Assembly: GCA_046563655.1 (NCBI GenBank)
Contig: CM102290.1
Coordinates: forward strand, 6,510,001 to 6,574,000
Source of the DNA: Yuukianura sp. NJ FZ-2021
Lineage: Eukaryota
Direction of reading: 5' to 3'
Length of the DNA stretch: 64,000 nt
A program made the translations under genes and the position numbers. Of the stretch, positions 34,641 to 61,611 are shown piece after piece. The notes under the pieces were generated by a model. The model did no database searches. It was not told where the DNA came from and worked only from the letters and a program-made list of their open reading frames with translations. Each line of letters starts with the position of its first letter. Position 1 is the stretch's first letter.

Positions 34641-34655
34641 CCCCCCTTCCGAAAA

Positions 34656-37945: not shown

Positions 37946-37979
37946 TTTTACTCATACTGTTCTTTTTATATATTTGCAG

Positions 37980-39141
37980 ATGGACGAGGAGATGGACCTT
38001 GGGCCTGAAGAAGGCATCGCTGAAGTTGATCTGGCCAAAGAGGAAGAAGAAGCGTTGCTACGAGCATCACCACCGCCTCCGGATTCGCCTTCCTCTTCGG
38101 ATTCTTCGTCATCTTCATCTCCAGCCACTGTCATCGCCTCTCCAGCTCCTCCAGCACCAGTCGTTGTCGTCTCTCCGCCTCCACCAACTCCGTCTACTTC
38201 AACTCCTGCTCAAAATGCTGCTCCGACGCCAATGGACGCTGCCGATGTTGATTGGGATTCTCCTGCCCCTCCGAAGACTCCCCCCAAGACCCCCCAACTA
38301 CTGCCCCCCCTCCTCTACCCAAGCACACGGTTCCCTTCGTAGCCTCCAAGAGATGGTTTCTACCCCACCCTCATCTTCTGTAACCCCAAAGCTCCGATCT
38401 GTTGTCGTTGTTCCCCCCAAATCCTGTTTGAACCCCAATTCCCGTCCCAGCGGCTCAAAAACCGTTCCCACTTCAATTCTTAAGAGAGGTGCGGCCACTA
38501 AAGTTCCCTCCCTTATGGATTTGAAATTCCCTGATGGCCCACCAAAACTCCCCAAAGCTGGATCTTCCAGTTCCCGCCCCACTACATACCCCCCACGTCC
38601 ACTTGACCCACCAATTCGCCCACAACCACTTTTCCCGCCAATTCCGTCTTCCTCTGCTTCCATTCCCCCAATTCCTACCCCAGCTCCTTCAGTTCCTACC
38701 CCAGCTACTTCAGTTCCCATTCCCACTTCCGCTACTTCCACTACAACCGTTTCTCCCATGTTGTCTGTCACTTCCCATGTAGTTTCCCCCAATTCCGGCA
38801 CTTCCATCACGATTTCCTCGCCCCATAACCTCTCTACACTTTTGCCTTCCAATATCCCGGGTTACGGACTCCTCTACACCCTAATCCCCACTGGTGTTAC
38901 CTCCGTCAACGTCACTTTCGGCAGTTCCCCCCAAAATTCTACTTCCCCCCAATTGGTTTCCCCCTCCGTTCCAGTACCACCACAAGTCCCAGCACCAGTT
39001 CCAGCACCAGCCCCAATTCCCCCTCCACCTCAAAATCCACCGCCGCTGCCCCCTCCACCTCCCCGCCATCAGCGTCGAGCTCAATTCTGGGCTTCGAGCT
39101 CCCAAAACCCGAACCGTCACCCCCAAAATCCCCCCAAGTAG
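37980..39141 (+). CDS. Pro/Ser-rich ORF at the env position, preceded by a splice acceptor; frameshifted at a C-run near 38305
   Basis: TTTTTATATATTTGCAG|ATG; an acidic N-terminus followed by a proline-rich low-complexity region. Confidence 0.45.
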
Positions 39142-42100
39142 AGCCTCTGTCCCGCTGCCAGTCGCCCGTGTGATGTCGCCGGGTCGGCTGACAGTCGTTG
39201 GGGACATGTGAGGAGGTTACTCCCTCTCCCGTCCGAAATTCATTTCTTTTTAGTCTTGGTTTCTTATGAAACCAAGACTCCTCCCCAAGTCCAGTATTTT
39301 CCCCCACTAGCCCTTGCCATGCTCCTGCAAAGGAACATGACAAGGCGTTTTTCCCACTCCGCCGTGTGTTTTTCCCCTCGCCGAATCCCCCAAACCACCT
39401 TCGAGAAGATTCTAGAAACTTCTGCCTGTTCACAGGCAGAAGCCCAATCCCACTTCCTCCTGGCAGTCCACTTCCAACCGCAGAGCAGTCCAGTCCTCGT
39501 CACTCGTCTCTCCGTCCTCCGCCATCTTCGTTTTCTGGCCCGTTGGCCACGCCGACATCACTGGATATCCTCTGGACATCACTGGACATCACTGAACATC
39601 CCTAGACATCACTGGACATCCCTAGACATCACTAAACACTACAATTTGGTTCTTTTTTCATTTATTTATTTAAAATAAACGTTTCCGTGTCTTTCCCCCA
39701 TTATCCGCCCACTCCACGTCTGATTTATTGTTCCGGGTCACTCTCGTGACCCGTCCATTGACCCATCATCCCGGGTGCCTGCACGGCGGCCCGTTGAGGA
39801 GTCTACCTCCTCTCAAGTTACTTTTATGCAAATTTTTTTGAAATGTATGCTGCGGGTTCAAATCCCGCACCTTGCAGAATTTTTTAATTTTTTTGTACTA
39901 TTATATAATATGAGAGTTTGGGGAGTTTTGAACCGAAAACTAATGTTAAAAATTTAATAAAAAATTTAAAACACTTTTGTAGTTGTGTTGGAAAACGCTG
40001 ACAGTTGTTTTGTTATTGCTTTTTTCAGCTTTTGAACACACAAATTTTTCAAAACATGATTCTTTTCAGGGGAAGTGAGGTGGGTTTAAATGAATCCGTA
40101 ATGGGGTGCGGCTGGAGTTTAGTATAAATTCTTTGAAATTTTGGGAACTTTTGATCAGATATGTGACGCTCATGTAGCTAGATTGAGGTAAATACGATTA
40201 AGTCATGGCAGGTAATTACTTTTGCTCATTTTGCTCCACATACTTTGATTCACTTGAGCTGTTTGAAAGTCACTGCCGGAGATATCACAACAGGAATACT
40301 GAACAAGCAAGTAAGACTTTGAAAATGTAAATTGTAGCTTTTTTTTATCTATGTCGAATTGTTTTTTGTTTTAAATTTCAGTGGAACAACCGGGTTCAAG
40401 CAGATCCATGAGGGGTGGACCAGTTCACAATACCAATTTTGAGAACAGTTTAGACAACAGTCAATTCAACGAAGCTTTAACCGATGTTGTTAATATTAAT
40501 AATAACGGTATACTTATTAAATCCTTTCTTTGCTAAAATGTAACTTTATGAATGATTTGGTTTCTCAGAGCTCCTGATGGAGCTTTCTGCGGATGATCTT
40601 GAGGTGATTGAGCAAGTACTGCGGGAAGATGACCTTAGCCTTGGTAAGTGAGCTAACCTAACCTAGATTTGGTTGAAATTTGTATTTTTTTTCGAGAACT
40701 GTCTCCGCCAAATGATTGGACAGAAAACGTAAATTTTAAGAACCGATTTTGTCCACTGTGTGTTGTTCGTTTCAAAGACGCGGGTGATTTGGATTTACAT
40801 CGGTTTGTCTATCATCCGGAACTTTTTGAGAGAAGTGAAATACCAGTTCAAGTAGGTGGACGATTAAATGCTGCTGAATTTGTTCTCCAGCGTGGAAGAA
40901 GAGGACGTGAAGGTATAGTTCGAGAGTATGTTGCTGACTTGACTAGAAGTATTTATGGTGACATTGAAGGAGTGTTTACGTGTCATGAAGTGATTCTATT
41001 AGAACTTTTGAGGAACATTTTTTTGGAGATTGGAGCGTATAGAATTTTGGGGACCGTCTACGCTGAAATGACAAGATTAGCCAGAGATGTCGCTGGTGTC
41101 AGTGAAAGTGAAGTTTTCCCATTTCACTCATTTATGCATAGTGTTTTAGATCCTAGTATGGTGTCAACAGTTATTCATCAATTACAGCGCAAAATGTCAC
41201 TATCGTTGGAAGCATCTCTATACAATGGTTCGGGGTGGAGAGCGAAACTGTTTACAAAATTTCAACTACGAATTTTGAAATTTCAAATGGACAGAGCTTC
41301 AAGTTACATTCCTACACCAAAGTCAATTCAAAACAAAAATTGTGTTGTGAATATAAGAAACACTGATGAGTACTGTTTCAAGTATTGTATTTTGGCAGCA
41401 TTGTTTCCTCTTTACCAGAATCCAAACATTAACTGGAAAAGATTCACAGATCCGAGAGAGTATCTTAAATACAAATGCAGTGTTGACTTTGACTGTATCA
41501 ACTTTCCAATGTCAATTTGTCAGATTTATAAATTCTTGCACTTTAACTCCAGTTTAGCAGTAAATGTTTAGGGTTATGAGGAATTGGATGAACTGGACTC
41601 TAACATTTCAAAAAAGAAGGTCACCGTTTTTCCATTGTATGTGTGTAAGGAAAGTAGAAAGTTTAACATTGACTTGCTCTTGTTGCTAGAGGGTTTGAAA
41701 GCTCACTTCACTTTATTAAAGAAAAGTGATTTAAATCCTTCGGAAGGTCTTTCTAGACTTTTGGGAAAGGAAGAACGGAATTATGCGAAATACATCTGCA
41801 GATTCTGTCTACTCTATTGGAAAACAAAGAAGAAGCTCGAGAATCATGAAAAATACTGTGCCGCTTTAGAACTACAAAGAGTTTCGTTACCAAATGAAAA
41901 GTATTTCAATTTCACAAGAATTAAGAGAACACTGCCTGTACCAGTTGTCAGTTATTTGGATTTTGAAGCAATTTTATTTCCACAAGCAGCAAGTGACCTA
42001 ACGTCAAAGGTTGGTGATGTGTACAATGAGCACATTGCTTGTGGGTGGTCACTCATATTGATTGGACCTCTCGGTGAAGCACTTGAAGGAATTAAAATTT

Positions 42101-42799
42101 TTCAAGGTCATGACGCGCAGCATACTGCTCTTGATGAGTTAATCAAAACGGCTTCAAAATATTTTCCACTCCTAAAAGTTGATTTTGGGCGGGATGCAAG
42201 ATGGTGTACTACAGACTTTTATAACATGCTTCATGCCTCAACACACTGTATACATTGTGGTATGGAGGTTCCTAACCGCGAAAAAGTGATTGATCATTGT
42301 CATTATACCGGAGCTATTCGTGGAATGAGTTGTAGCAAGTGTAACTTAAATTGTGAGACAGTTAATTTCATTCCAATCATATGTCACGGTTTTCGTCACT
42401 ACGACTCAAAATTTATTGTACAAGCTCTTAAAAGTACAAAACTGAAAAAAGTGGGAGTGATACCTCACTCGATTGAAAAGTTTACTTCAATGCAATTGAC
42501 AACTTTAGAAGGATATGTACTTAAGTTCATGGATTCTTTTCAGTTTATAAGTTCAAGTTCAGCCGATCAAGTCAAAGTTTTGGCAAAGGATAACTTTGAT
42601 AAGTTTCCCATAACAAAAGCCACATTTGATAAGAATTATAAAAATATTAATTTGTTGTTTCGAAAAGGAGTGTATCCTTATACATATTTTGACAATTTTG
42701 AAAAGTTTGATGAGACAAGTTTACCGCCGAAATGTCTTAGGGTGAGAGTGACTTAACAGGGAAAGGAATTAGTGATGAAGACTTTGAACATGCACAACG

Positions 42800-45700
42800 T
42801 GTTGAGAATTACTCAGCATATCCCAAAAGGGAATAAGAATAATTTTAATATCAAAATGAAATGGGTTTAGATTTAAGGAAATAGGTTTAACTTAGGAGTT
42901 AATTTGGCCTCGCATGAGAGGAGAAGAGAAGAGACTGAAATTAAGGTGAATTTAAATGTAATCAAAGGGTTAATGTTGATCCACTTGAGTGGAGAATAGA
43001 ATCAAAGGGAAAGGGTTAGCGTCTACTTTGTATGTGAAAATAGTACTACTGACTTGCGCACTAGAGCAGGGATAGTATGTGTATTTGTAAATTCAACGCT
43101 TTCCATAAGGTAGAATCTCTCCCTCCTTTTTACTACAGAAAAGATACACCACAAGAAGAGAGTCTTGTAGTAGCCTTTGCAGAGGCAGCAACTTACACAT
43201 AGATTCTCAACTGTCACTTGTCACTTTTCAGTTCTCATTTTAATCACTTTCAATTAGTAGTTTTTAAAGAGTAATGTTAGTCTCAAGTTTTTTAATCATT
43301 AATAAATGAATCAAATAGAAAACGTTCAGTGTTCAGAATCTGGCATTCCATCCAACAATCTTCATGGTGCCGAAAGACGGTTATAGTGAGTCATAATCAA
43401 TCCGACTGCTATTACACAAAGGATGACGAACCGATTTGGACATTGAACTGTAAGTGATTGGACTTGAGTGCCTATAGTACCGTCACCACGGCGTCAGGAA
43501 CGAGGTCACAAGTCAAGGCAGCAAGCATATCCAAGATGGCGGACAAGAGCGATAATACTGGGACACCTAAGGCTGCTTCAGGAATTGTAGCAGCAGGGAC
43601 CAGCATTAGCGTAGTTCCGTCAACGGAATCAGAAATCATGAAGAAACTGGTGAGGTCATTGAAAGGTTTTTCCATGGATCTCCAGTATTTCCAAATGGAA
43701 ATTGAAGAGTATGTAACTGCTCCAGCAACAGTCACGAGTACTGCTTTGGTCGTCGAACGTAAGAAACTGGATAATTTTGAATCTATGTTGAGTTCGATCA
43801 GACAGGAAATTTACATGAATTGTGAAGACGATGAGAAGCTTCGCGAACAGGCAAAGGAAATTAACATATGCGACAAATTCATAAAGAGGATTCGCACAAG
43901 GCTTATCTCTCTCGAGTCGAATGCTGGACTCTGCACCACAGGGGGACAGAGCCAAAGCACACAGATGAAGGTCAACATGCCCAAGTTGGAGTTGCCCACG
44001 TTCAATGGAAAATACGAGGAATGGTTAAGTTACAGGGACTTAATGCTAACCTACGTTGTTAATAATGCTTCGCTTTCAGGAAGCCAGAAATTAGGTTATC
44101 TACAACCAACCCTAAAGGGAGAGGCAGAGGAAACGTTGAAGTACTTTGACCTCAGCAATGGATCCTTCGAAGAGGCTTGGGAGACGCTGAAGGAGCGTTA
44201 CGAGAACCCTCGTCAGATAATTTTTGCATTTTTGCAGAAAATGTTCAATTTTAAACCAATTGCGCAGGAGACTCCTCAGTCTTTACGCAAATTATTGGAT
44301 GTGTTTAACATGTCCATTAGACAGTTGCAGGTTTTGAAAGAGCCTGTGTGTCACTGGGATTCTATACTTATCTTTTTGATTCTAGAAAAACTTTCGCCAG
44401 AGACAAAAAAGGAATGGACAAAGAATTTCAAGGGAACGAGCATGCCCGCATTTTCGGAGGTCAAGGACTTCCTCGAGGATCATTTAAGATCACTCAATGT
44501 CACTTCTGGTGATAAGTCGCGTACTGACAGTCAGAAGGCGATTGACAAGAACAAGGAAAGGAAGGTGCACACTGTGTCAGGCAGTCACCCGAAACCATGT
44601 CTTAAGTGTTCTGGAGAGCATGGATTATTCAAATGTCCAGAATTTGGAGCCATGCCGCAAGACCAAAGGGAAAAATACGTAAGGGCTAATAAACTTTGTC
44701 TGAATTGTTTAAGGCCTGCGCACACTGCAGAAAATTGTCGTGCTCCTTTCACTTGCGGAAAGTGTAAGAAGAAGCACAATACACTCCTTCATCGTGAGAA
44801 ACCACAACCAAGGTCAGAAGGTCAACCAAGGGCAGAAGGTCAACCAAGGTCAGAAGGTCAACAAGGCACTTCGACATCAGCCAACCATTGCGCCGGTGCG
44901 CGTGTGGTTTTAGCCACAGCCATTGTCAATGTGCAGAATTCCCTCGGAGATCTTCAGAGTTGTCGAGTCCTACTCGATCAAGGTTCGGAATCTAATTTTA
45001 TTTCAGAACGATGTGTCAAATTTTTAGGTTTGAATCGTCGTGGAACTGACGTCAGAATCACAGGGATTTCTGGAGCCATGGTGCAGAGGGCACTTGGAGA
45101 AACGTCATTCCAAATTGAGTCAATGGCAAAAAATTATAAGTTCACTGTTAATGCTTTGATTTTACCAAAGGTAACAGGTACCTTGCCATCATTTCAAATT
45201 AATCCAAGTGATTGGACATTCTTGGACGAATTGAAGTTAGCCGATCCGGAATTCTACAAACCAAATGACATTGACATTTTGATTGGAGGAGAATTCGTGG
45301 CTCGCCTCAAAACTGGTAAAAAGGTTCAAGGAGACCTTAATCATCCAGTAGCAGAAGAAACAGAACTCGGTTGGGTAATTTCCGGTCCAGTCAAACCAGG
45401 CCGTGTGGTGAGTGTGAACCACGCTTTAGTGGAAACTAATCAGATTTTGCAGAAATTTTGGGAATTGGAGAATGTCCCACACCACCAGCCACTGACAACA
45501 GAAGAGAAAGCCGCCGAGGCACATTTTGTAGCCACTCACTCCAGAAATGACGACGGAAGGTATGTTGTCAAGTTACCATTTAAACAGAATTGCCAAAATT
45601 TAGGTTCATCCCGAGAAATAGCCCTGAGACGGCTGTATGGAATTGAACGGAGACTAGAAAAACATCATGAACACAAGGTCGAGTACCGTAAGTTCATGAC

Positions 45701-48700
45701 TAATTACATTGAACTTGGTCACATGGTCCAGGTTCCCAAGTTGGGGGCAGGTGAGGTGATGGGAGTAACCAATTATCTTCCACATCACTTTGTACTAAAG
45801 GATACCAGCTCCACTACGAAATTGAGAGTCGTGTTTGATGGCTCTGCAGAAACGAGCAATGGAATCTCGTTAAACAAATGTCTAATGGTTGGTCCAACTG
45901 TACAAAAGGACACATTTGCTCAATTTCAGGTCAAAGGCCATTGCTCTAAAGGCGGACATAGTGAAAATGTACCGTCAGTTTCTGGTTCACCCATTGGACC
46001 AAGACAAACAACGGATTCTCTGGAGAGACAGTCCGAAAGATGAGATTCAAGAATACAAATTGACTACAGTCACCTATGGCACAAGTTCAGCCCCATTCCA
46101 TGCTGTCAGGTGCTTAAATCAACTTGCTGAGGATGAGGGACTTAAATACCCACGAGCAGCAGAGGTAATCAAAAATGATTTTTATGTTGATGATTTACTA
46201 ACAGCGGTGGATACTTCAACGGAGGCCAGTCAGTTGATTGCTGACTTGATCAGTATTCTGAGCCTTGGATGCTTGGAAATATCAAAATTCGATTCAAATT
46301 CGAAAGATGCACTTAAAGATGTTCCTGAGGACAGAAGAGGCAAAAATGACAATTTCAGTGACCTTGACGTGGACAGGGTCTTAGGAGTCTGCTGGGATTC
46401 AAATGTCGATGAATTCCACTTTCGTGGATTCTCGTCTCAGCCAATTGGAATCCTAACCAAACGAATCATTTTGTCTAATATTTCTCGTGTTTTTGATCCT
46501 CTAGGATTTTTAAGTCCTCTAACTGTGATCATTAAGATTTATTTTCAGGAATTATGGGAGCATGACCACAGGGGTCAGAAGCTCAAATGGGATGACGAGA
46601 TCCCAACTCAATTACAACAGCCGTGGAGAGAGTACATTGACGGGTTAAGTAAAATTAAATTGATTAAAATCCCCAGATTCTTAGGATTAGGTGGGGCCAG
46701 CCAAGTGGAAGTTCATGGATTTTCGGATTCATCTGAACATGCCTACTGTGCTGCAGTCTACATCAGATGTACTTTCCCAGACGGATCAATTTCTACGAAC
46801 TTAGCAGCAGCGAAAACGAAAGTGGCTCCTGCTAAGCAAGTCAGTCTCCCAAGATTGGAACTCTGTGGAGCACTTCTGCTGTCAAGGTTGATTCCCAAGG
46901 TAATGGAATCACTTAATCTAAAATGTTCTATTTCAGCTTGGTCAGACAGTGAAACTGTTCTGAAATGGGTTCGGAATTCATCTCGTCGCTTCGTCACATT
47001 CGTTGCGAACCGAGTTGCTGAAATACAGGAAGTACTACCAATGGAATCCTGGAACTTCGTACCAGGAATAGAAAACCCGGCTGATCTTGGCACTAGAGGA
47101 ATCTGTGCAGAGGATTTGGCCAATTCATCATTTTGGTGGAAGGGACCATTGTGGTTAAGTGACCCAATGATACCTAATTTTGAGCCAGGGGGCAAGGTGA
47201 GTGAGCCTCCTGACTTAGAATTACGAAAAGTAAAGGTTAATTTGTCAATTATTGAGCTGAATTTCATGTTGAGGTTTTCAATCCTCATGAGGCTTAATCG
47301 TGCAGTGGCATATGCCACAAGATTTATATTCAATTGTAGGAACAAGAAGTTGGGTCAAAGTCACACCGGAGACTTAACGGTAGCAGAAACTCACTCCGCA
47401 TTCATGGTTTGTGTCAGATCCGCCCAATGGGATGACTTTTGGGAAGAGATCACATTACTAGAGAAGGGGAAACCAATTGGTAAGAGTAGTTCCATAAGTT
47501 CACTAAATCTGTTTCTAGATCAAGAAGGTGTACTGAGAGTCGGAGGCAGACTCCAGAATTCGGAAGCTCCAGATGAGCAGAAACACCAAATAATCATCAG
47601 TGGACATCATTACTTAACACAATTAATCATCATGGACTACCACCGTAAGTTTCATCATGCCAATTACCAATTGCTCTGGTCCAATCTGTCGAGAAGATTT
47701 TGGATCATTCGTGCCCGAGTGGCCATTCGGAACATGATTCGGAGCTGCCTTCGTTGCAAGAGAATGAAGGCTAAGATCACAGAACAACTCATGGGTAGCC
47801 TGCCCAAGGCCAGAGTCACTCCTTCGTCACCATTTAATCACTGTGGAGTTGACTATGCTGGACCGACTAAGCTCCAAGAAAAATACGGACGTGGGAAACG
47901 ACAATTCAACGCCTATTTTTGCATCTTCGTTTGTTTCACAACCAAAGCAGTTCACCTTGAGCCGGTGACTGATCTTACTACAGAGGCTTTTATAGCCACT
48001 TTGAAAAGATTCATTTCCAGGAGGGGCCTGAGTACTAATATTTATTCTGATTGTGGGTCTAATTTTGTTGGTGCTGCAAATGAGTTAAAGGAGTGGCACT
48101 CAATTATCTCAAATTCTAAAGTATTTGATTTTTTGTCTTTTCAAGGTATTCAGTGGCATCTGAATCCACCCGATGCACCCCACATGGGAGGAATCTGGGA
48201 AGCAGGCGTGAAGTCTGCCAAATATCACATTAAGAGGGTCGTGGGAACTACAACATTGACCCTGGAGGAGTACTACACACTGCTGACCTCCGTGGAAGCT
48301 GTTCTCAATTCTCGTCCCATTTGTGCTAAGAGCCAGGATCCAGGCGACTACGAGGCACTAACTCCAGGCCATTTTCTAATTGGGAAGCCTCTCATGTCAG
48401 TTCCGGAACTGGATCTACGAGAAATCAAGGAGAACCGACTTTCCCGTTGGCAGAGAGTCCAGCAGATGACTCAACATTTTTGGAAGCGCTGGAGCGCAGA
48501 ATACATCAATTCACTCCAACAGAGGAACAAGTGGAAAACCAAAGATGACAATTTGAAAATCGGAGATCTCGTGCTGATAAAAGATGAAGATACTCCGCCT
48601 CTGAATTGGAAGTTAGCAAGGATTTCAGCTGTATTTCCTGGTGAAGATGGGCTTGTTCGTACTGTGGAAGTTACTTAGAAGTCAGCTGAGCTAAATCACA

Positions 48701-49784
48701 AGGGTGAAATCATCAAACAGAAAGAGCATGTCTTCAAACGTCCAGTTGTAAGAATCTGCAAATTATTAGACAAGGAAGATTTGTAAGTTTAGGATTTTAC
48801 TCAATTAGTACTTAGTTGTAAGAATTAGAATTCAATTTAAGATTTAGGTTTCAATTTTAATCAAATTTAACGTAAGTAGTTAGTTTGGTATTAGTATAAG
48901 GCAACTGAGAATTTTTTACATTGGCCGTTCGAGTAATTTTCACTTTAATTTTTATATGCAAATCAGAAGTGATCGTGATTGTATGTGACCTGTGTTTCCT
49001 AGTGAATTGGATGCTGACCAGGTCAAGCAAAGACTGGCCTGCCCGCTCCCAGGCGAGGGACTTTGTCCACCCCTCAGGTCACCGAGGTCAGTTGAAGGTT
49101 CACTTCCTTGCTCCTGTCCTTGTGTATGTGAAGAAACAATCACTTTTGATTTCATTTTTGCACTTATGCACTTTGTTTTGATTTTGGGATTTGAATCCGT
49201 GATTCAAATCGGAGGCCAGTGTTGAGAATTACTCAGCATATCCCAAAAGGGAATAAGAATAATTTTAATATCAAAATGAAATGGGTTTAGATTTAAGGAA
49301 ATAGGTTTAACTTAGGAGTTAATTTGGCCTCGCATGAGAGGAGAAGAGAAGAGACTGAAATTAAGGTGAATTTAAATGTAATCAAAGGGTTAATGTTGAT
49401 CCACTTGAGTGGAGAATAGAATCAAAGGGAAAGGGTTAGCGTCTACTTTGTATGTGAAAATAGTACTACTGACTTGCGCACTAGAGCAGGGATAGTATGT
49501 GTATTTGTAAATTCAACGCTTTCCATAAGGTAGAATCTCTCCCTCCTTTTTACTACAGAAAAGATACACCACAAGAAGAGAGTCTTGTAGTAGCCTTTGC
49601 AGAGGCAGCAACTTACACATAGATTCTCAACTGTCACTTGTCACTTTTCAGTTCTCATTTTAATCACTTTCAATTAGTAGTTTTTAAAGAGTAATGTTAG
49701 TCTCAAGTTTTTTAATCATTAATAAATGAATCAAATAGAAAACGTTCAGTGTTCAGAATCTGGCATTCCATCCAACAATCTTCA
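42800..49784 (+). mobile_element. Full-length BEL/Pao LTR retrotransposon
   Basis: 565-bp LTRs (42800-43364, 49220-49784), identical by eye; 5-bp TSD CAACG; PBS TGGTGCCGAAA at 43365. Confidence 0.95.
43536..48785 (+). CDS. BEL gag-pol polyprotein (frameshift ~45915, premature TAG at 48676)
   Basis: Triple Cys/His knuckles, protease LLDQGS, RT YVDD, RNase H HGFSDSS, integrase GVDYAGP/YSDCG/GGIWE. Confidence 0.92.
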
Positions 49785-51568
49785 CAACGTGTTTGGAAAG
49801 AATTTGGTTGTAAAACTTTGAGGGATTACTACAACCTATACGTATCTCTGGATGTCACACTTCTTGCTGACTGTTTTCAAAACTTTAGGCAAAGATTTTT
49901 AGCAGATTTCCGTTTAGACCCTGCTCACTATTACACTTTGCCTGGTATAGCATATGATGCTGCTATACTATGTGGCAGTGTTGGTTTTGAATATTTGCAA
50001 GATTTGGATCAATATACGTTTATTGAGAGAGGAATTAGGGGTGGTATTTGTAGCGTTGGCTTGCGCTATGCAAAAGCAAACAACAAATTCTTAGGTTCAT
50101 CCTATGACCCTACGCTACCAACAAGTTATTTATGTTTGTGGGATGCAAACGTGCTGTACGCCCACCAACTTCGAAATTTTGTACCATGGAAAGACTTCCG
50201 GTGGGATTTATGCTTGTGGCAAAGGACAGTGAAGCTGGACGATGTCATAAAGATGATTCGGGGTATGGACGACGAAGCGGAAGAAGGTTTAATTTTGGAA
50301 GTAGATTTGACGTATCCAAAGGAGCTGCATGATTTGCACAACGATTACCCACTTGCAGTTGAGCGGCGATCTATTCAGTTTTCAGATTTGTCATCCTACA
50401 CACATCATGTTATGTATAACGCAGGAGCGAAGTCTTCAACTCAAAAAAAGACAAAGTTGGTGGGAAGTTTAGAAGATAAAAAGAATTATGTTGTACACTA
50501 CAGATTACTGAAACTTTTTTTAGAACTTGGTTTGAAGTTGACAAAAGTACACTGTGCTATGAGGTTCAGACAAGCACCATTGTTCCGTGTATACTGTGAG
50601 TTGTGTATAAAAAGGCGCCAAGGGTCAACAAATGAAGTAGACAAGAAAGCCTACAAAGCTTTGGGAAACATTTTAGTTGGAAAAACCTTTCAAAATGTTA
50701 GAAAATATAAGCGAATTAATGTTGCCCTATCAAAAGAGAAGATTTTGGAGTATGGTAAAAAGCCTACAGTAGAAGATATTAGAATAATACATAATGACTG
50801 TGTTCTATTTCAAATGAAAAAGTTGTCTGTGTGTTTAAATAAGCCAATATTTGTAGGGCTTACTGTGTTAGACGATAGTAAAAAACAAATGTATGAAGTA
50901 TACTATAAGAAACTGAAACCACGTTATGGTAGTAATATGCGTCAAATATTTACAGATACTGATAGTTTTATGTTATATATTAAGACAGAAGATGTTTATG
51001 CAGATATTTATGCTAGTGTAAGGCAAGACGAAGGGCTATTTGATACGTCAAATTTTAAGAAAAGTGATAAGCTACTAGGACACTTGTACAGTGACAAGCA
51101 TGCTGGAGAAGGGGGATACTACAAAGATGAGAGTCCAGAGTGCATAATTTCTGAAGTTGTGGCTCTAAAACCAAAACTATATTCTTTGAAGCTGGTGACA
51201 CGTGACGGAGAGGAGAGAGAAATTAAAAAAGCAAAAGGTACTGTGACTGCAGTGCTGGAGTCTCAGTTAAGCTTCAAAGATTATAAAGATGTATTGGAGG
51301 AAGGTAGCTGTAGATTTGTATCAATGAATACTATTCGTAGTTTAAATCACAAACTGTACACAACAACAATGAAAAAGCAGAGCTTGTCTGCGGTAGATGA
51401 CAAGGCCTTTTATTTGACACCAATTGAATCCCTTAGATTTGGACATTATAAGATTAAAGAGTTTCAAGATAGTGTTGTGTAGAAGGAAAAAAAACCAGTT
51501 TAATAAAAATTTAATAAATCATGTTTTGAATATGTTTCACTTCATTTGCGTACAGAAGTTCGGATAGG

Positions 51569-52212
51569 ATGGAGTTCAGGCCTGAATTGATTCATCCGTT
51601 TGTGATGGTGTTGAGTGGACCTACACAAAGTGGAAAGAGTACACTGATTAGACAACTGATTGAAAGGAGAGATGAAGTAATTGAACCAAAAATTAGGCGT
51701 ATTATTTATTGCTACAGTGAGGATGAGCCTAGTTTTGCGGAGACATTGAGATTATATCACAAAGTTGAATTTAAGCAAGGGATGGAGAATTTGGATGTGG
51801 CAGAAGGAAATCAAGTGGAAACAATGGTGATTTTAGATGACTTCATGGAGGTTATTGCCAACTCGAAAGAAGTCTGTGCCATGACCACCAGAGGCTCTCA
51901 TCATCGCTCTCTTAGTTTAATTATAACAGTGCAAAATTTTTTTATAAGGGATGTAGAAACCTAACTTTAAATAGTAAATATGTAGTTTTGTTTCGAAATC
52001 CCATTGATACAACAATTATAAAATACTTGGCAAGGCAAATGAATGGCGGAAAGTCAAACGGGTTGTTGGAAGAAGCATATGAAGACGCAACAAAAAACAA
52101 GCCCAATAGTTATTTGTTTATTGATTTATCTCAAAATCAGGATGACAATTTTCGTTTTAGATCAAATGTGTTTCCAGACTCATCCTCTTGTATAGTATAT
52201 ATGAAGAGATAA
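51569..52212 (+). pseudogene. A32-like (FtsK/HerA) genome-packaging ATPase, frameshift ~51950
   Basis: Walker A GPTQSGKST, Walker B VILDD, RGSHH...QN, YLFIDL. Confidence 0.9.
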
Positions 52213-52228
52213 TAATAAAAGCTTACAG

Positions 52229-52786
52229 TTACAATCTTTTGAGTTTCAAAAGTCCTTCCATCAAACAGTCGTATAACTCAACGGGCAAAGCAACTCCGAC
52301 ACTTTGATCAAATTGATTCTTAATGTGCAAGTGTGTTGTTCCAGAAAATCCGTTTTCATTTCCAAATAAAAGTTGCCAACCGTCTTCCAAGTTAATTTGA
52401 GGTGGAGGAAATGGTTTAGGAAATTCTTTCCGGACTTCAACGACCATAGAAAGGGATGTAACCTTCTTTGCACGTTGATTAGGTGTAGATTGCCGTCTAA
52501 TTTTTTTTCCACCTCCAGTTCTGCGACAAGTTTGCTCAGATTCAGGTTCAGTTGTAGGTTGAGGAGTTGGGTGGATGACAGTGTTAATATATGTATCCAT
52601 TTCGGTAGCAAATGTAGAAGTAGTTGGAGAAGTAGCTGGTTTGTCCATAGTACGTTGCCTTCCAAGTTTATTTAAGTTACAATTGCAGGAAAAAGTTTTA
52701 CACACGGTTATCGTAGTTGTATTATTTCTTTTGAAGAAAAAATTGGATAATGTTTGCCAAATAGAACAAAAACTACAAGAGCTCAT
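52229..52786 (-). CDS. Hypothetical viral protein
   Basis: Open frame between the ATPase and integrase; more likely starts at the internal MDKPATSP. No recognised domain. Confidence 0.4.
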   Translation of the reverse strand: MSSCSFCSIWQTLSNFFFKRNNTTTITVCKTFSCNCNLNKLGRQRTMDKPATSPTTSTFATEMDTYINTVIHPTPQPTTEPESEQTCRRTGGGKKIRRQSTPNQRAKKVTSLSMVVEVRKEFPKPFPPPQINLEDGWQLLFGNENGFSGTTHLHIKNQFDQSVGVALPVELYDCLMEGLLKLKRL

Positions 52787-52799
52787 TCCTCGATAAAGT

Positions 52800-53786
52800 T
52801 CAAACTAGAAATGGTGAAACTTTTAAACGTTCTTCCCTGTAAAATATTCCAAAAATTGAAACCCCCTTTTTGTCTTGGATTTGAAAGGTGATTGGATTTG
52901 TATTATAAATATTTGAAATTGTAAAAATTTCATTTTTCCAAGACTGGGCGTAGCCTTTAGCAAAAGTGGATTTAACTTTACTGATAAGTACTTTATCACC
53001 AACGTGAAGCAGTTTTGACTTTGGAAATTTGAGTCTAGATGTATATTTTGAGTACAAATTTAAGAAAACTTGAGTTTTTGTTTCGTTGTTGACTTGATTT
53101 GGAGTCATTTTTATTGAGGAATGGTAGGAATTGTTATAAGCCTCAACAAGATTTTGCAAAACATGAGTGTATTTTGTACTATTTGAATGAGTCATGTACT
53201 TTGCAATTCTATTCATGAGAGTTCTGTTACACCGTTCAACTATTACAGCTTTAAGTTCAAAACGGGTATTAAACAAGTTTACTCCTACTTTTTTAAGCAT
53301 AGTTTTGACATTCTTATTAATAAACTCAGATCCCTGATCGCACTACAACTGCTTAGGAACGCCTCTTTTTTTAAATATTTTTTGTAAAGTTGTAGCTAAA
53401 AGTTTTCCAGTTTTATTTTTGAGTGGAATAGCGTCTGCAACTTTTGAAAAAGCATCAATGCAGGTAGCCAAATATCTATATCCTCCATTTGTGTCTTTGT
53501 ACTTGGAAAGGTCAACCAAATCAATACAATACTGATACTTCATTGACGGAACCAACACTTTTCGCCGGGGATAACGTTTTCTAGCTTGAACGTGTAAATA
53601 ATATGCCGGTAGAGATGACAGAGCGTTTCCCACAACCTTAGAAAGTGTGGATGCGGAGAGTTTATTTTCTTTAGATTTAAGTAGAGTTTTGAGAATTTGG
53701 TGTTGTCCAGTAAAAGCAAAACTATTTTTAGGGTTGACATACTGCTGCCTAATTTTTTTTTCAAGTTTGAGGTGACGTCGCGGCAT
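52800..53786 (-). pseudogene. Maverick retroviral-like integrase (in-frame TAG at 53343-53345)
   Basis: IDLVDL...YLATCIDAFSK, (stop)CDQGSEF, KAVIVERCNRTL, YNNSYHSSIKMTP and FAKGYAQSW. Confidence 0.92.
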
Positions 53787-53953
53787 GATGACAAGTAGTT
53801 GAGGGGGGAGTGGGGGGAACTTAAATTCAAATGTCAAAAGGGGGCGTTGAAAGGTGACTGAACAAATGTTTTGAATATGTAAATTCTTATAAAGGATTTA
53901 GTAATTTGGAAAAGTTTGTTTATTTGAAAAGTTGACATGCCGCTGGGAACATC

Positions 53954-54286
53954 ATGTCTCTTAGATTACGAAAAAATTGTGACTTTTTGAAATATTTGTC
54001 AACTTGTGCAAAAGAACAACGAATAGGATTAATAAAAAACGCAACAAAGCCTGAAATTGAGTCTATTTGTGAATGCATTTTAAATATTTATAAAAAAAAC
54101 TTTGGAGTGAGTAGTAAAACAATTTCAAAATTGAAACCGCATAAGAAGACAATTCTTTCAATTATAAAACGAAGAAAAACTTCATTATCAAGAAAAAAGA
54201 AGCTTTTAACACAACGCGGTGGAGCTATCCTTCCAATTCTCCTTGCATCAATAATTCCACCAGTACTTTCCAGAATTTTAAAATAA
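53954..54286 (+). CDS. Small basic putative virion core protein
   Basis: ICECILN motif, basic tract, and QRGG followed by a hydrophobic/amphipathic C-terminal helix, as in small Maverick/adintovirus ORFs. Confidence 0.7.
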   Translation: MSLRLRKNCDFLKYLSTCAKEQRIGLIKNATKPEIESICECILNIYKKNFGVSSKTISKLKPHKKTILSIIKRRKTSLSRKKKLLTQRGGAILPILLASIIPPVLSRILK

Positions 54287-54353
54287 AGCAGTGAGAAGGG
54301 AATAGGTAGGAGGAGGAGGAGGAGGAGGAGGAGGAATTGACAGAATAAACAGG

Positions 54354-55373
54354 TTGAAATTAGTTTCGGAAGCTGAATATAAAAAAAAGTTTGACCCTAC
54401 ATTTGAAGTAAGCAGCAGCAGCAGCAGCAGCAGCAGCGGCAACAGTGGAGTTGATTTGACAAAAAGTTTAGATTCAAAGTTGACTCCTACTACTACTACT
54501 AGTAAAGGGGAACAGCTGCAATTTGGTAAACAACAAATTTTGAGTGCAAAGGATATTCCTGATGACATCAAGGCTTTACTTTATCATGACTTTGCGAAAC
54601 GGTTACACGAGAGACGTAAAATTTTAGCCAACCAACCTATTCTTGTTAAAAATGTGGACAGAAAAAAAGAACGAGCGACGAGTGCAAATTTAAGCAGTAA
54701 TAATTCTGGAAACTCTTCTATGATTTTGGTTACTGAACCCTACATTTTAAAACAAATTCCAAAAGTGAAAGAAGGAAAAAAATTGTTTAAACATATGAAA
54801 CAATGTAACATTTTTTGGAATGATAAGTTTGAAATTGTTATTGACGAAAACCGAATTCCATTTTCAAATATTATAAATGTCATTTCATATTACTTGGAAA
54901 ATTCAAAACGAAGAGAACAGTTTCAACCACCTCCAGGTTGGTATGAAGTACATCAGCACCTTCAATCCGCATTAGTTTCCCCCCCACACGCCATAAGAAA
55001 ACTACTAAAGCAATTTAAATCCATACATTATGGTTCCCTAAACATGTCACCAACTAAATCTACTCCAGCGCTTAATTTAGAAAAAACATCTCCAGCTTCG
55101 TCTAGTGTCATTTCATTTGAACCGGGTTCAAATTATTCTACAGCTGATTTAAATAGTAGTACAGCAATAGAAACATTACCAAATGAGTCTCAGCTTTTAT
55201 TGGATGAAGACCAAGAAGTTGGAAGTGGAGGAGTGGAAAGAAGTGGTGTAGTAGATAGACAAGACGAAGAGGGTGTGGAATTTCCTTCAAAGAAACGTAC
55301 TACTCCTATGCTAGCGCGTTTGAGAAAAAGAAAAACTCCACCTTCACTCCAAAAAAAGTTAAAGGAAAAGTAG
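54354..55373 (+). CDS. Conserved Maverick/adintovirus protein of unknown function
   Basis: IPDDIKALLY, IFWNDKFEIVID..IPFSNI and PPGW motifs that I recall from group-2 Maverick ORFs; the start codon is unclear. Confidence 0.6.
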   Translation: MKLVSEAEYKKKFDPTFEVSSSSSSSSSGNSGVDLTKSLDSKLTPTTTTSKGEQLQFGKQQILSAKDIPDDIKALLYHDFAKRLHERRKILANQPILVKNVDRKKERATSANLSSNNSGNSSMILVTEPYILKQIPKVKEGKKLFKHMKQCNIFWNDKFEIVIDENRIPFSNIINVISYYLENSKRREQFQPPPGWYEVHQHLQSALVSPPHAIRKLLKQFKSIHYGSLNMSPTKSTPALNLEKTSPASSSVISFEPGSNYSTADLNSSTAIETLPNESQLLLDEDQEVGSGGVERSGVVDRQDEEGVEFPSKKRTTPMLARLRKRKTPPSLQKKLKEK

Positions 55374-55547
55374 TAAAAGGGAAACAAGTTGGAAAAGGTT
55401 TCAAGCATCGTCCTTCTCCTCCTCCCTTTTTAAATTGGGAAACATACTAAGAAGAAAAAAAGAGTGAGAAAGAAGGGGAGCCCCCCCCCCCTGGGGGACA
55501 GATCGTGCAACTTTTACTAAAAAAGGGGGGATCCCTTACCGTTTTCC

Positions 55548-55710
55548 TTGGGATTTTTTTACCAGCGTGTTCACAGTGGATTTAAATCCAGCGTTCCTCT
55601 GGATTTTTTTTCCAGCGTGTCCACAGTGGATTTAATCCAGCGTTTCTCTTGGATTCTTTTCCAGCGTGTCCACAGTGGATTAAATCCAGCGTTCCTCTTG
55701 GGATTTAAAT
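55548..55710. repeat. Three ~49-50-bp tandem repeats with a GGATTTAAATCC-type palindrome
   Basis: CCAGCGTGT(T/C)CACAGTGGATT... starts at 55562, 55612 and 55661. Confidence 0.85.
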
Positions 55711-55799
55711 TCCTGCCTTAACATTGAGTTTTTTTTAATCCCTGCGTTAACTTTGCCTTGTTTTTTTTTAAGTGTGTTGTCCATTTAAAAAAAAAAGTT

Positions 55800-56677
55800 A
55801 TGAGTTTAATTGGAAACGAAACTTCATTTTATGTTACTTTACAATCTAATGCTTCCATGGACATTTTCCCTAGAAATAAAATTTCCGATTTTAAAAATCG
55901 GCTTGGCTCTCCAATTTTTCTTCCACCAGGTCAATGGCAAGTAGCTTTAACAAGTATTAGTTACACATACGGTAGCCCATTCATAAAGAAAGGAGATGTT
56001 TTATTTGAAAAGAAGAAGAAGAGTGAAGCATCTTTGGAAGCACCTACTTCAAAAATTATATATTTACATAAAGAAAAATCTTTAGAAACAACACATGTGG
56101 AAATGAAGAAGGTTGTGGTACCAACAACTGTTCTCATACCACCCCACCTCCAATCTCATCTTACAAAGATATAACTACAGAATCTGAACTACTTCATGTA
56201 CTTCATAAACTAATTGAGGGAAGTAATTTTGACATTGATGGAAACACATTTTCCTATACTATTCCTCTTGATGAACAAGAAACATTGGAATTTTCTCGAA
56301 AATTATGTGATATTCTTGGCTTAAGTTCTAATCAACTTACCTACTCTCATCAAAATTCAAATGGAAAAAACATTTTTAGCGGGAAAGGAACAATGCCAAT
56401 GTTTTTGAATTCTGGAAATACTAAATTATTCATATATTGTCCTTTAATTCGTCCACAATTTGTTGGAGACGTGATGGTTCCATGCCTCCGTGTGATTGAT
56501 TATGATGGAATTACCGGGAAACAGAAAACACATGAAGTTATACATCAATTCATTTATGATATTGCTGTGTCAGAATTTGAAGTAATACACATATATATAC
56601 GCAATGAAGTTTCTGAACCAGTTGCATTTGAATTTGGTAACGTGACTGTTACACTACGATTTCGAGAAAAACGTTAG
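55800..56677 (+). pseudogene. Minor capsid (penton, PX) protein, frameshift ~56160
   Basis: N-terminal FYVTLQSNASMDIFPRNKISDFKNRL...WQVALTSI and C-terminal LFIYCPLI.PQFVGD...LRVI...VTLRFR. Confidence 0.85.
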
Positions 56678-56690
56678 GATTTTTTGAAAA

Positions 56691-57179
56691 ATGAAACATT
56701 CAGGATTTAACTGTCGAGTGGATGAGCCGAATCAATTCTTTAAATTAAATTATTATACTCCACAATTTGGATACGGTACAGTAGAACCAAGATTGTACTT
56801 TTCTGGAGTTAGGAGACAAAAGGGAGCTGGAATTGGGGGAGTATTTGGGATTTTAGCTAGACGTTTGTTACCATTTGTTAAACAATTTATACTTCCACAT
56901 GCTGCAAAAGCATTAAAAGGCATTGCTATTGATGCGATTGATGGAAACCAAAATGTGAAACAGTCTCTTAAAAGTCATGGTCTTCAGGCACTTAAGGCTG
57001 CAGGGAGGGACGTTCTTAGTCAGAGTGGATTTGGAAGACGAAGACGAAACAAGTCTAAGAAAAAGAAGAAGAGTAGGCGTACTTTGAAACGAGTAGGTCA
57101 TAAACCCACCAAAAGGAGAAATAAAATCAAAAGAAGAAGAAGAAAAAAAAATTCAAAAAAAATTAGGTATATTTTTTGA
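56691..57179 (+). CDS. Putative virion core / membrane-active precursor protein
   Basis: QFGYG, QKGAG and QSGFG motifs; amphipathic IGGVFGILARRLLPFVK; very Arg/Lys-rich tail. Confidence 0.75.
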   Translation: MKHSGFNCRVDEPNQFFKLNYYTPQFGYGTVEPRLYFSGVRRQKGAGIGGVFGILARRLLPFVKQFILPHAAKALKGIAIDAIDGNQNVKQSLKSHGLQALKAAGRDVLSQSGFGRRRRNKSKKKKKSRRTLKRVGHKPTKRRNKIKRRRRKKNSKKIRYIF

Positions 57180-57187
57180 AAAAAAAA

Positions 57188-58525
57188 ATGCCAAAAGTCA
57201 AAGCTTCAAAATTAAAAAGTTCATTCCATGCTGCTCCCTACACTGTCATCCGATCAGAAACACAACTTTTTGAAAAACCAGTCTATGATGTTTCACTTTC
57301 TTCAACTTCAATTTCTGAGTATCATTCAATTAATTCAATCACTGATTCTCAATCTCCACTTGAATTTTTTATTCAATCAAATCAAGTGGAATTTTTAGAC
57401 CTTGCCGAAACTAAACTATATATTAAGGCACGTATTGTTAAAACTGGCAATTCAACTTTAGATGAAGCGGATATTGTTATACCAACAAACAATTTTCTTC
57501 ATAGTTTGTTTTCACAATGTTCAATTTATCTAAATGAAGTCCAAATCACACCCGCAAATAATTCATATGCTTACAGAGCCTACATTGAAACCTTATTAGC
57601 ATATGGAAAAGAATTTAAAAAATCTCAAAGTCAATGTGCATTTTTCTACAAAGATAAAGATCCTAAAAATACGGATGTAAAATTAGAAGGCGGTTTGAAA
57701 ACTCGTTACGATTTGTCAAAATCTTCGAATGTAATTGAATGTTTGGGACGGCCATTCACAGATATCTGTATGCAAAATAAGTATTTAGTACCTGGAATTG
57801 ATGTTCGAGTTTCGTTTCTCCGCTCTACTCCAGAATTTTCACTCATGTCCACCGTAGCTAATGCAAAATATCAAGTGCAAATTTTGGAAAGTAAATTAAT
57901 AATACAAAAACAAAGCCTTCTTCCATCTCTACTCACTTCTACTCTAAAAACTTGGGAACAAGGAAGACCAGTCACTTATCCTCTGAAACGTGTTGAAGTC
58001 AAAACTTATACAATTTCTCCTGGAACTATAAATAGTGTGAATGAAAACTTGTTAACTGGAATTGTACCAGATAGAATAATTTTGGGACTCATTCCTTCTG
58101 AAAATTTTATTGGCACTTATGCTACAAATCCTTTTGCTTTTGATCATTTTGGACTAAATTATATTCATGTTAGTGTAACTGGAGATTCTGGTTCAAGCCT
58201 TCCAGTCCATTGTGATTTTGAAGAGAATCAATACGTACAATTGTACAGTAACCTTTTCTACGGACTTGGAATTTCAAATGATGACGTTGGAATTGATTTA
58301 AATTGGAGTGAATTTAAATCTAATCCAGTTTACAACTTGAGACATATAAAAGACGGATTTCCAGCTCCAAAATATAGAAATGTTAAAATTGATTTAAAGT
58401 TTAAGGAAGGTTTGAAAAAAGCTATTACTGTCGTTGTCTATTCTGAACTACAGTCAGTCTTGCATATCGATAGTTCCAAATCAGTTTACTTTAGAGACTA
58501 CAGCGGATTAACTATTGATTCATGA
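57188..58525 (+). CDS. Major capsid protein (PY, hexon-like)
   Basis: Open ~445 aa with PLEFFI...LDL..TKLYIK, NNFLHSLFSQ, YAYRAYIETLL and NPFAFDHF. Confidence 0.9.
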   Translation: MPKVKASKLKSSFHAAPYTVIRSETQLFEKPVYDVSLSSTSISEYHSINSITDSQSPLEFFIQSNQVEFLDLAETKLYIKARIVKTGNSTLDEADIVIPTNNFLHSLFSQCSIYLNEVQITPANNSYAYRAYIETLLAYGKEFKKSQSQCAFFYKDKDPKNTDVKLEGGLKTRYDLSKSSNVIECLGRPFTDICMQNKYLVPGIDVRVSFLRSTPEFSLMSTVANAKYQVQILESKLIIQKQSLLPSLLTSTLKTWEQGRPVTYPLKRVEVKTYTISPGTINSVNENLLTGIVPDRIILGLIPSENFIGTYATNPFAFDHFGLNYIHVSVTGDSGSSLPVHCDFEENQYVQLYSNLFYGLGISNDDVGIDLNWSEFKSNPVYNLRHIKDGFPAPKYRNVKIDLKFKEGLKKAITVVVYSELQSVLHIDSSKSVYFRDYSGLTIDS

Positions 58526-59037
58526 ATACTAATCAAATTTTTTCTTATCTTAACTCTTTTTTGTCAAATAAAAATTGTTCATTCGATGTAATACCATGTG
58601 ACCTTTTAGACACTTATTCAATTAGAAAGTATCCCTTACTCCTTTGTTGTAACACGGACGAATCAAATTCTCCTGGACAACATTGGATTTCAATTTTTAG
58701 AAAGTCAGCTCAAACTCCGCTAATATTTGTTGATTCTTATGGAATGGGAGCCAACTTTTACAACAAATCTTTTCAAAACTTTGCCTCTCGTCTCAATACC
58801 TACTTTATAGAAAATGCACAACGGCTCCAAAGTTTTAACAGTACAGTTTGTGGAGAATATTCAATTTACTTTCTATTTAAACTTTATTCTTCTTGCTGTT
58901 TAATGTCAATTTATTGTAACTTTAATCGTAATACTGTTTTTAAGACTCTAAAGTCAAATACTTTGTTAGAAAAAAACTTGCATGTAGAAAATTCAATTCA
59001 AATTTTAAAGCTATTCAATGTTGTCAACCTTTTTTGA
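58522..59037 (+). CDS. Adenain-like cysteine maturation protease
   Basis: NTD...PGQHW (His), FVDSYG (Asp), LQSFNSTVCG (Gln/Cys); the C-terminus is probably frameshifted. Confidence 0.92.
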   Translation: MNTNQIFSYLNSFLSNKNCSFDVIPCDLLDTYSIRKYPLLLCCNTDESNSPGQHWISIFRKSAQTPLIFVDSYGMGANFYNKSFQNFASRLNTYFIENAQRLQSFNSTVCGEYSIYFLFKLYSSCCLMSIYCNFNRNTVFKTLKSNTLLEKNLHVENSIQILKLFNVVNLF

Positions 59038-59157
59038 AATAAACAACAAAAATCCAAATCTCTTTTTTTTTCAATGCTTCAAATGCTCCCCCCCTAAACA
59101 AGAGGCTTTTATTTAGTTCTTTTTTTCAAAAAAAAAACCAAAAAAGATTAAAATGTT

Positions 59158-59609
59158 TTAGTCGTGTGGGATTCCAACTAGTTCAGCTCGAAAAGCTTCC
59201 AGTTCGTTCAAACAATTTTGAAGGCACTCAGCCAATTTTGTAACCTCTCCCCTATTTGATCGTAGATAAATGTTGTTGAGACGGCGCATTACATAGGGAA
59301 TGTTCCGAACTTCAAAATTAGTCGTCTTTCCAAGCCGCTTCATGTAGACCCAAGTAAATGGATTTCCACGGTACATGACATCACGACTCCACAAGTTTAA
59401 CTTCCTTTCCTCATCGTCCCACACCGTCAAATCCTCAACCTCTTCAGTCCCTCCTGTAGTAGCAGCAGCAGCAGCAGCGTTTTCCTTTCCTTCTCCTAAC
59501 ATAGAAACAAAATCAGCTATTAAAAAACATCACAAATACTTTGGAAAAGTTATTTTTTTTCCTTACCTCCTGAAGGCAATTCGGGCGAATTTGGTGGAGC
59601 CTGAGCCAT
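59158..59609 (-). CDS. Small two-exon hypothetical protein
   Basis: ATG at 59609 (MAQAPPNSPELPSG), a GTAAG...TTAG intron, then an exon encoding EGKENAAAA...GIPHD. Confidence 0.55.
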
Positions 59610-60011
59610 GGTTAACCGGTTGATGCAAAAGCAGAAAGTGTCGATAGCAGAATGATAAGCTTTATGAACAAAATTTCCTTCTTTTATACCAAAAATTTCC
59701 CACTTCAGCATCACTCCCAAACTCAAACCCCCTCCTCCAAAAGCAAATTTTCTTTTTTGCTGAGGAACATTTGTTCTAGAACCTGTTAGGTATACTTTTA
59801 TTCAATCAGTATTCATCCTCTGGGACATGCGGAAGTGGATTGAACCTTTGACGATAATCACTTTCAATACCTAACAATTCAGAAATAAAATTTTGTTTCA
59901 CCAAATTATTTTAAATTCAAATTCCAGTTGAAATCCGTTCAGGACTTCGACTCCCATCCGATCCTCCTCCATATCTTCAACATCGTGCCAAATTCTTAGC
60001 CTCCGTGCACA

Positions 60012-61313: not shown

Positions 61314-61611
61314 TCAAGAATAAAAGTATCCTCAACTGAAATATGATTATGCTCTTTTTTCAAAAGAAATGTACCTCCAAAGGCAAATCTCCCAAACTCA
61401 TTTTGTTGTTAAAAAGAAATTTTGTTAACACGAAGATGCAGTCAAAAAACAAAATGTGAAAACACACTGAGTTCAAATCACAAACAGGTAGCTCCTTTTA
61501 TTCTGCAAACAGACTCAGCTCAAATCCATTTTAATTCAAAGAAGGAAAACATCTAATAGCGACTAACATCATTCTAAATTAGGGGGGTGTATAACTGAAT
61601 TACCAAAAAAC

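Follow-up and report, generated by a model that had tools for sequence, protein, structure and literature searches.

Gene content of the locus

The 64,000-nucleotide stretch of contig CM102290.1 from the Yuukianura sp. NJ FZ-2021 assembly (GCA_046563655.1) that we analysed, hereafter the window, is AT-rich (GC 0.32-0.43 outside a single GC-rich insert) and carries between positions 40205 and 59037 a gene set of the Maverick/Polinton type: PolB, a packaging ATPase, an integrase (on the minus strand), two small proteins, a penton protein, a basic core-like protein, a major capsid protein (MCP) and a protease, each occurring once. The gene list was reproduced from stop-to-stop open reading frames (ORFs) and family scans of the window, and all eight gene classes reported by a first-pass annotation of this DNA were found where it had placed them and in a virus-like order, as judged from collinearity with a related genome. 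That genome, L001, is a 12,321-bp IMG/VR contig retrieved with the MCP alignment; its ORFs are intact and it is bounded by terminal inverted repeats (TIRs) of ~265 nt (1-265 against 12063-12321). In tblastx and tblastn comparisons the window is collinear with L001 from 41227 to 58941, that is, from PolB to the protease, with 28-49% protein identity across the matched genes. This collinearity is the main support for the identification, and the fold of the MCP, the fold of the penton family and a protease profile that matches adenain support it further. Two more relatives served for comparison: L002, a 6,585-bp metagenome contig whose MCP is the closest to that of the window (59% identity), and L003, whose MCP is 44% identical and whose genes are all intact. 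L001 is, in its own right, a complete and apparently intact Maverick/adintovirus-like genome and a useful reference for the lineage.

The MCP gene (57188-58525, plus strand) is open and full length, encoding 445 aa. Its product has 163 relatives at E<=0.001 among 5021 candidates, the best of them 60% identical at 100% coverage; those that are named bear the label 'F54H12.2-like' and belong to spiders, parasitoid wasps and a limpet, and the match to the L001 MCP reaches an E value of 2e-71. An AlphaFold2 model computed from a 43-sequence alignment (pLDDT 86.0, pTM 0.84) was compared with the PDB by Foldseek; of the 500 matches counted, 255 reached E<=0.001, and the list is headed by Singapore grouper iridovirus (6.3e-15), Sputnik (2.9e-14), PBCV-1 capsid chains and mavirus (7.6e-13). 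The predicted fold is a double jelly roll. Among the viral models of BFVD the best match is a Cotesia sesamiae Mombasa bracovirus protein (26% identity, E 3.5e-25), followed by adomavirus LO7, virophage and giant-virus MCPs.

The penton gene, of the single jelly-roll family, lies at 55800-56677 on the plus strand and suffers a change of frame between 56072 and 56174. Seven homologues were found at E<=0.001 among 36 candidates (40-59% identical), the match to L001 has an E value of 8e-13, and a profile search of 1.84 billion proteins returned 10,600 representatives of the family at E<=0.001. Since the window gene is broken, its closest intact homologue, P0121, which shares 49% and 58% identity with the two pieces, was folded instead from a 72-row alignment. 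The resulting model (pLDDT 94.5) matches the pentons of mavirus (1.4e-9) and Sputnik (5.5e-7) and many adenovirus penton bases. Agreement with jelly-roll capsid proteins, which had been named beforehand as the test of the first-pass identification, was thus obtained for both the MCP model and the penton family.

Directly after the MCP, an open and full-length gene on the plus strand (58522-59037) encodes an adenain-like cysteine protease. Its His, Gln and Cys residues occupy columns that are invariant in all four aligned sequences, and the Asp is present in three of the four. The match to the L001 protease has an E value of 2e-10, and a profile made from the four sequences finds African swine fever virus (ASFV) S273R with an E value of 7.5e-6 and adenovirus adenain (1avp) with one of 4.8e-5. 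The window protease on its own gave no match in Pfam or, by phmmer, in the PDB, and its relatives score 20.4-22.0 bits against Peptidase_C5, around the cut-off of 21.3.

The packaging ATPase is of the FtsK/HerA type (51569-52212, plus strand) and contains a Walker A motif; it scores 22.8 bits against Pfam Pox_A32 and 21.8 bits against Adeno_IVa2, in each case at or above the family's own cut-off. Read in two frames, it aligns with residues 5-116 and 120-193 of the L001 ATPase at 39% and 49% identity. The integrase is encoded on the minus strand (53786-52800) and matches Pfam rve with an E value of 2.7e-6 and 28.0 bits, below the cut-off of 32.6, whereas that of L001 scores 41.3 bits against rve and also has a Chromo match. 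The two integrases are 35% identical over 307 columns, covering residues 5-293 of the L001 protein (E 4e-53). This gene accounts for the only difference in gene order between the window and L001: in the former it is found between the ATPase and the small protein p116, on the minus strand, and in the latter it follows the small ORFs and precedes the penton gene, on the plus strand; in L003 the order of modules differs again.

PolB is divided into a 5' part (40205/40657-42799) and a 3' part (49785-51482), both on the plus strand. The 5' part, with an OTU-like Cys motif and the exonuclease region, aligns with residues 55-584 of the L001 PolB at 28% identity over 576 columns (tblastn, E 2e-40), and the 3' part, with the polymerase domain, aligns with residues 604-1143 at 34% identity over 562 columns (tblastn, E 1e-83). 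Exonuclease and polymerase motifs are visible in the alignment and include TDTDS, which lies in the 3' part. PolB is also homologous to the intact PolB of L003, and it has an Atlas score of 0.97 to clusters in which DNA_pol_B_2 occurs in 24-35% of members, its neighbours there being mostly arthropod. The 5' end looks spliced: an ATG at 40205 is followed by three putative short GT-AG introns of 170, 61 and 53 nt (40212-40381, 40508-40568 and 40644-40696), the phases of which, read by eye, lead exactly into the long PolB ORF. An N-terminal Cys motif is common to the window, L001 and L003; this short motif is what speaks for an OTU-like domain, and the N-terminus has no Pfam OTU match.

Between Exo I and Exo II, at 42235-42350 (residues 222-259 of the ORF 41572-42756), PolB contains an endonuclease VII-like zinc finger that scores 30.1 bits against Pfam Endonuclease_7 and matches four endonuclease VII families of PHROGs. 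Its pattern of Cys and His residues is kept in L001 (PolB residues 360-407) and in L003. We found no use of the term endonuclease VII in the papers on polintons that were searched; supplementary gene maps for the adintoviruses may show such genes.

The remaining ORFs of the core region are small. The 110-aa protein p116 (53954-54286, plus strand) has a weakly pX-like C-terminus and is 35% identical to L001 p113 over 80 columns (E 8e-5), and its L003 counterpart, p105, has a sub-threshold Adeno_PX match (E 0.029). It is followed on the same strand by a 355-aa ORF (54306-55373), the N-terminal and middle parts of which align with L001 p127 and L003 p181. A basic, core-like protein of 162 aa with a tail rich in Lys and Arg is encoded by an open gene at 56691-57179 (plus strand); it is 35% identical to L001 p129 over 71 columns (E 1e-5) and also matches L003. 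The first-pass annotation had described the MCP and core ORFs as still open, which holds for the MCP and the basic protein, whereas the 355-aa ORF, also open, has no ATG before residue 139. Its expected start, where the relatives begin, is occupied by a GGA repeat. Within 54306-54450 GGA and then AGC repeats have expanded, giving the protein stretches of poly-Gly and poly-Ser that its homologues in L001 and L003 lack. On the minus strand, directly downstream of the integrase, a 191-aa ORF (52229-52804; 139 aa from its first Met) has no Pfam family and no clear homologue. It was considered as a counterpart of the PC4-like ORF p170 of L001 and rejected, there being no significant match.

Lesions and nested retrotransposons

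Two long terminal repeat (LTR) elements are nested in the region, as the first-pass annotation had stated, and both proved real by their target-site duplications. The one further upstream (32068-39814, plus strand) matches Pfam Retrotrans_gag and rve. Its direct repeats differ at one position in an alignment of 612 nt, of which the final 4 nt are the flanking 4-bp duplication AGTT. No reverse transcriptase (RT) or RNase H was detected in it, and six further ORFs that were scanned yielded no match at E<=1. The element stands out by a GC content of ~0.50 against ~0.36 around it and by a GC skew of -0.26 to -0.38, the plus strand being strongly C-rich. The other, a BEL/Pao retrotransposon of 6,985 bp (42800-49784, plus strand), lies within PolB and matches Pfam DUF1759, Peptidase_A17, DUF5641 and Integrase_H2C2. 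It is bounded by an exact repeat of 566 nt and a 5-bp duplication, CAACG; because the left target-site copy ends on the very base with which the repeat begins, each LTR measures 565 nt and the pair is identical. The PolB reading frame continues exactly across the insertion site.

Apart from this insertion, PolB is interrupted by a TAG in frame at 41569-71 and by a shift of frame near 42740, the ATPase has a frameshift near 51934-51946 and the integrase an in-frame TAG at 53343-45; together with the frame change in the penton gene, these lesion counts agree with those given earlier for the four genes. Still open are the MCP, the protease, the basic protein, p116 and, in the right arm, a small conserved ORF and an F-box ORF. 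The idea of a complete morphogenesis module therefore stands as regards gene content and fails as regards the penton and ATPase genes, which are broken. Introns were considered as the cause of the three frame changes and rejected on inspection by eye, the gaps being too short at PolB and the ATPase and the penton break lacking a GT-AG pair of compatible phase.

Over the 11,424 nt of reading frame, 5.5% of the possible single-base changes create a stop, so that the two premature stops correspond to ~36 substitutions, or ~0.3% neutral divergence since constraint was lost, an estimate that rests on two events and has a wide error. Given this figure and the youth of the nested elements, recent inactivation, which had already been suggested from the low number of lesions, is a reasonable reading.

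The right arm and the ends of the element

Beyond the protease, two further ORFs lie on the minus strand. The smaller (59158-59529) is 37% identical to an 82-aa ORF of L002 (E 7e-17). The larger (60012-61301), which is open, encodes a putative F-box/leucine-rich repeat (LRR) protein; the interval 60012-61313 on the minus strand aligns with L002 2799-4280, also minus, which holds an ORF of 477-493 aa, at 24% identity over 437 columns (E 7e-16). Both ORFs occupy the same place and orientation after the protease in L002. The F-box assignment comes from a Pfam F-box score of 21.9 bits against a cut-off of 20.5 and an Atlas score of 0.96 to F-box clusters, and the LRR assignment from a match to LRR_4 at 22.3 bits, below the cut-off of 27. 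In the L002 homologue an F-box-like start is found just upstream of the first ATG at a sub-threshold 14.3 bits. A word-indexed protein search gave no relatives at E<=0.001, and tblastx against 81 fetched loci gave none besides L002. In layout the window ORF resembles cellular FBXL-type proteins, with an N-terminal F-box followed by predicted leucine-rich repeats.

Since the F-box/LRR gene is kept in two elements whose MCPs are only 59% identical, it probably belongs to the virus lineage and is not a host neighbour. Recruitment of the host's SCF ubiquitin ligase by means of F-box proteins is known from some poxviruses, baculoviruses and plant viruses. We tentatively suggest that this Maverick lineage likewise carries its own F-box/LRR adaptor, which might turn that ligase against a factor of the host. 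The words 'F-box' and 'LRR' are absent from the main text of the adintovirus paper (PMC8502044), the supplementary gene maps of which may show such genes; 'F-box' does not occur in the searched part of a nematode Maverick preprint; and of the surveyed papers that join F-box/LRR with polintons or Mavericks none is, by title or abstract, about an element-borne gene.

Past the F-box gene lies an ORF of 206 aa (61612-62232, minus strand) with a high content of Pro, Gly and Val and no family match. In L002 the corresponding region differs: 4409-5615 (minus strand) is occupied by four adjacent paralogous ORFs (74-151 aa) that contain CxxC motifs in pairs and match double zinc ribbons weakly; the window has no counterpart of them. 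L001 has a similar Cys-rich ORF of 106 aa upstream of PolB. These ORFs of L002 and L001 resemble 'Oncoid' genes in position and motif as described in the main text of Starrett 2021 (PMC8502044).

The synteny of the right arm with L002 means that the element reaches at least to 61313. Neither TIRs nor a Maverick target-site duplication were detected in the window by a repeat search and by self-BLASTN at word size 9, and a search of the flanks at word size 7 gave nothing above chance and no inverted repeat linking the left flank with 58900-64000; the ends are therefore undefined. The right end must be sought past base 64000 unless the termini have been lost. On the left, a fragment of an old BEL/Pao gag gene (28567-30294) stops abruptly at ~30294, the remainder being absent from the window, and is followed by a possible left arm (30295-32067) in which we recognised no gene, homology or TIR. 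With the nested element subtracted, the distance from ~30295 to the ATG of PolB is ~2156 nt, against 2117 nt in L001, which is circumstantial evidence for a left end near 30295. The flanks have no nucleotide similarity to any of the 81 loci. An extent of about 19 kb, counted earlier from 30279 to 64000 with the two LTR elements excluded, is accordingly not demonstrated: the fragment at its left edge runs to ~30294, and TIRs that would delimit it were not found.

The surroundings of the element are rich in transposon remains. They include, from left to right, an ORF resembling gag (3310-4620) that has a zinc knuckle, then a 14-bp tandem array at 5037-5470, and an RNase H ORF at 12206-13156. A non-LTR element on the minus strand (18939-22268) encodes an endonuclease (386-aa ORF) and an RT (722-aa ORF) with one in-frame stop between them, and it adjoins a 53-bp tandem array with eight registered copies at 23022-23620. 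To our knowledge, elements of the BEL/Pao group, to which the gag fragment at 28567-30294 belongs, are restricted to animals. Together with the mostly arthropod Atlas neighbours of PolB and the origins of the named MCP relatives, this makes an invertebrate animal the most likely host on the sequence evidence.

Nature and history of the element

We conclude with high confidence that the region is one integrated and recently decayed copy of a Maverick/Polinton virus, adintovirus-like in kind, in transposon-rich surroundings. The nested LTR elements, with their target-site duplications, and the flanking retroelement debris show that it is integrated. The copy is genuine and dead, and of an ordinary kind, such endogenous Mavericks being common in animal genomes; its one less ordinary trait is the virus-borne F-box gene in the right arm. 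By analogy with the family, the working form would replicate by its own protein-primed PolB and integrate by its rve integrase. An icosahedral capsid would be built from the double jelly-roll MCP and the single jelly-roll penton, DNA would be packaged by the A32/IVa2-type ATPase, and the particle would mature through the adenain-like protease. The present copy is disabled by the very young BEL/Pao element that splits PolB, by the premature stop and the frameshift in the same gene, by the frameshifts in ATPase and penton and by the premature stop in the integrase; the second young LTR element sits upstream of PolB. The Maverick runs rightward past the protease, where the opposite strand holds at least two further genes conserved in the lineage, including the F-box/LRR gene.

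The capsid genes of Mavericks/Polintons were defined by Krupovic, Bamford and Koonin 2014 (PMC4028283). With this group (Polintoviricetes) the element shares a protein-primed PolB, an rve integrase, an A32-type ATPase, an adenain-like protease, an 'F54H12.2-like' MCP and a penton, as well as its integration into an animal genome; it differs in that TIRs and a target duplication were not detected in the window, in a PolB that fails PF03175 and in the presence of the F-box/LRR gene. The target-site duplication of Mavericks is 6 bp long. With the adintoviruses, as described in the main text of Starrett 2021 (PMC8502044), it shares the set of Adenain, PolB, rve, FtsK-type ATPase, hexon-like and penton-like genes and, weakly, a pX-like tail on a small protein. 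PLA2X, GasderminX, cupiennin and Oncoid genes were not recognised in the window, no ORF of which matched a PLA2 or gasdermin family, and against the BFVD entries for adintoviruses and MELD the MCP reaches an identity of ~10-12%. L001, collinear as it is, differs in the strand and place of the integrase, in a shorter PolB N-terminus, in having no F-box/LRR gene and in a different right-end ORF with a weak PC4 match. L002 is closer in MCP, in protease (47% identity) and in its right arm, which is the same, and differs in the four small double-zinc-ribbon ORFs that follow and in being a contig without the left part. The element is a member of the animal Maverick/Polinton group and adintovirus-like in gene content.

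Several observations weigh against this identification. The penton fold comes from a homologue and not from the broken window gene; the window protease, MCP and penton match no Pfam family; the integrase is inverted relative to L001; and the window has yielded no TIRs and no Maverick target duplication, so that a single complete insertion is not proven. Because the right end may lie beyond 64000, this absence does not exclude membership in the Maverick/Polinton group. PolB was matched neither by PF03175 nor by PHROGs, nor in the PDB by phmmer and profile searches, nor by tblastn against phage genomes; PF03175 was absent at E<=1 for the 3' part and for L001 and, with limits of E<=0.1 and E<=0.01 respectively, for L003 and the 5' ORFs of the window, and the PolB of the intact relatives likewise goes unrecognised as a polymerase. 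The identity of this gene therefore rests on its motifs, its Atlas score and its position and synteny, and it is the least well anchored of the set. In the adintovirus scheme, as given in the main text of Starrett 2021 (PMC8502044), the Alpha class of PolB is the one recognised by PF03175 and the Beta class is divergent; the failure of PF03175 suggests that the window PolB would fall into the Beta class.

Three other explanations were weighed. The copy may be less decayed than it appears, some or all of the three frameshifts being assembly errors in short base runs, which are typical sites of such errors in long-read assemblies; the frame change in the ATPase does fall in a run of T, and that in PolB sits beside a short run of G. 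The penton break, in contrast, comes with ~30 extra codons relative to homologues, and neither the two TAG stops nor a 7-kb retrotransposon in PolB can be explained as base-run errors, which leaves this explanation unlikely. We consider it more improbable still, and the least probable of the three, that the region is a composite of at least two Maverick fragments, or a rearranged copy, in place of one insertion. The displaced integrase and the failure to find TIRs would fit such a history, whereas every core gene is present exactly once and the order is otherwise that of L001 and L002. L003 has yet another order of modules, so rearrangement among lineages is normal, and the inverted integrase may be native to this lineage.

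Only slightly less improbable than a composite is a host origin for the right arm, in which the F-box/LRR ORF and the small ORF would be host genes beside the insertion. F-box/LRR proteins are ordinary cellular genes, the F-box ORF found no relative in the word-indexed protein search and the right terminus was not located. Against this stands L002, an element with an MCP only 59% identical, in which both ORFs again follow immediately on MCP and protease, their order and orientation unchanged; a shared host flank hardly explains this recurrence. A single, recently decayed Maverick/Polinton copy that includes both right-arm genes remains the preferred reading.

As such, the locus offers a well-resolved example of an endogenous Maverick, with open capsid and protease genes and a low lesion load, and with nested retrotransposons whose identical or nearly identical LTRs bracket the timing of its inactivation. 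This suggests that the lineage formed virions in recent times and may still be represented by intact copies in the host. Small leads on the accessory functions of animal Mavericks come from the conserved F-box/LRR gene and from the endonuclease VII-like finger within PolB.

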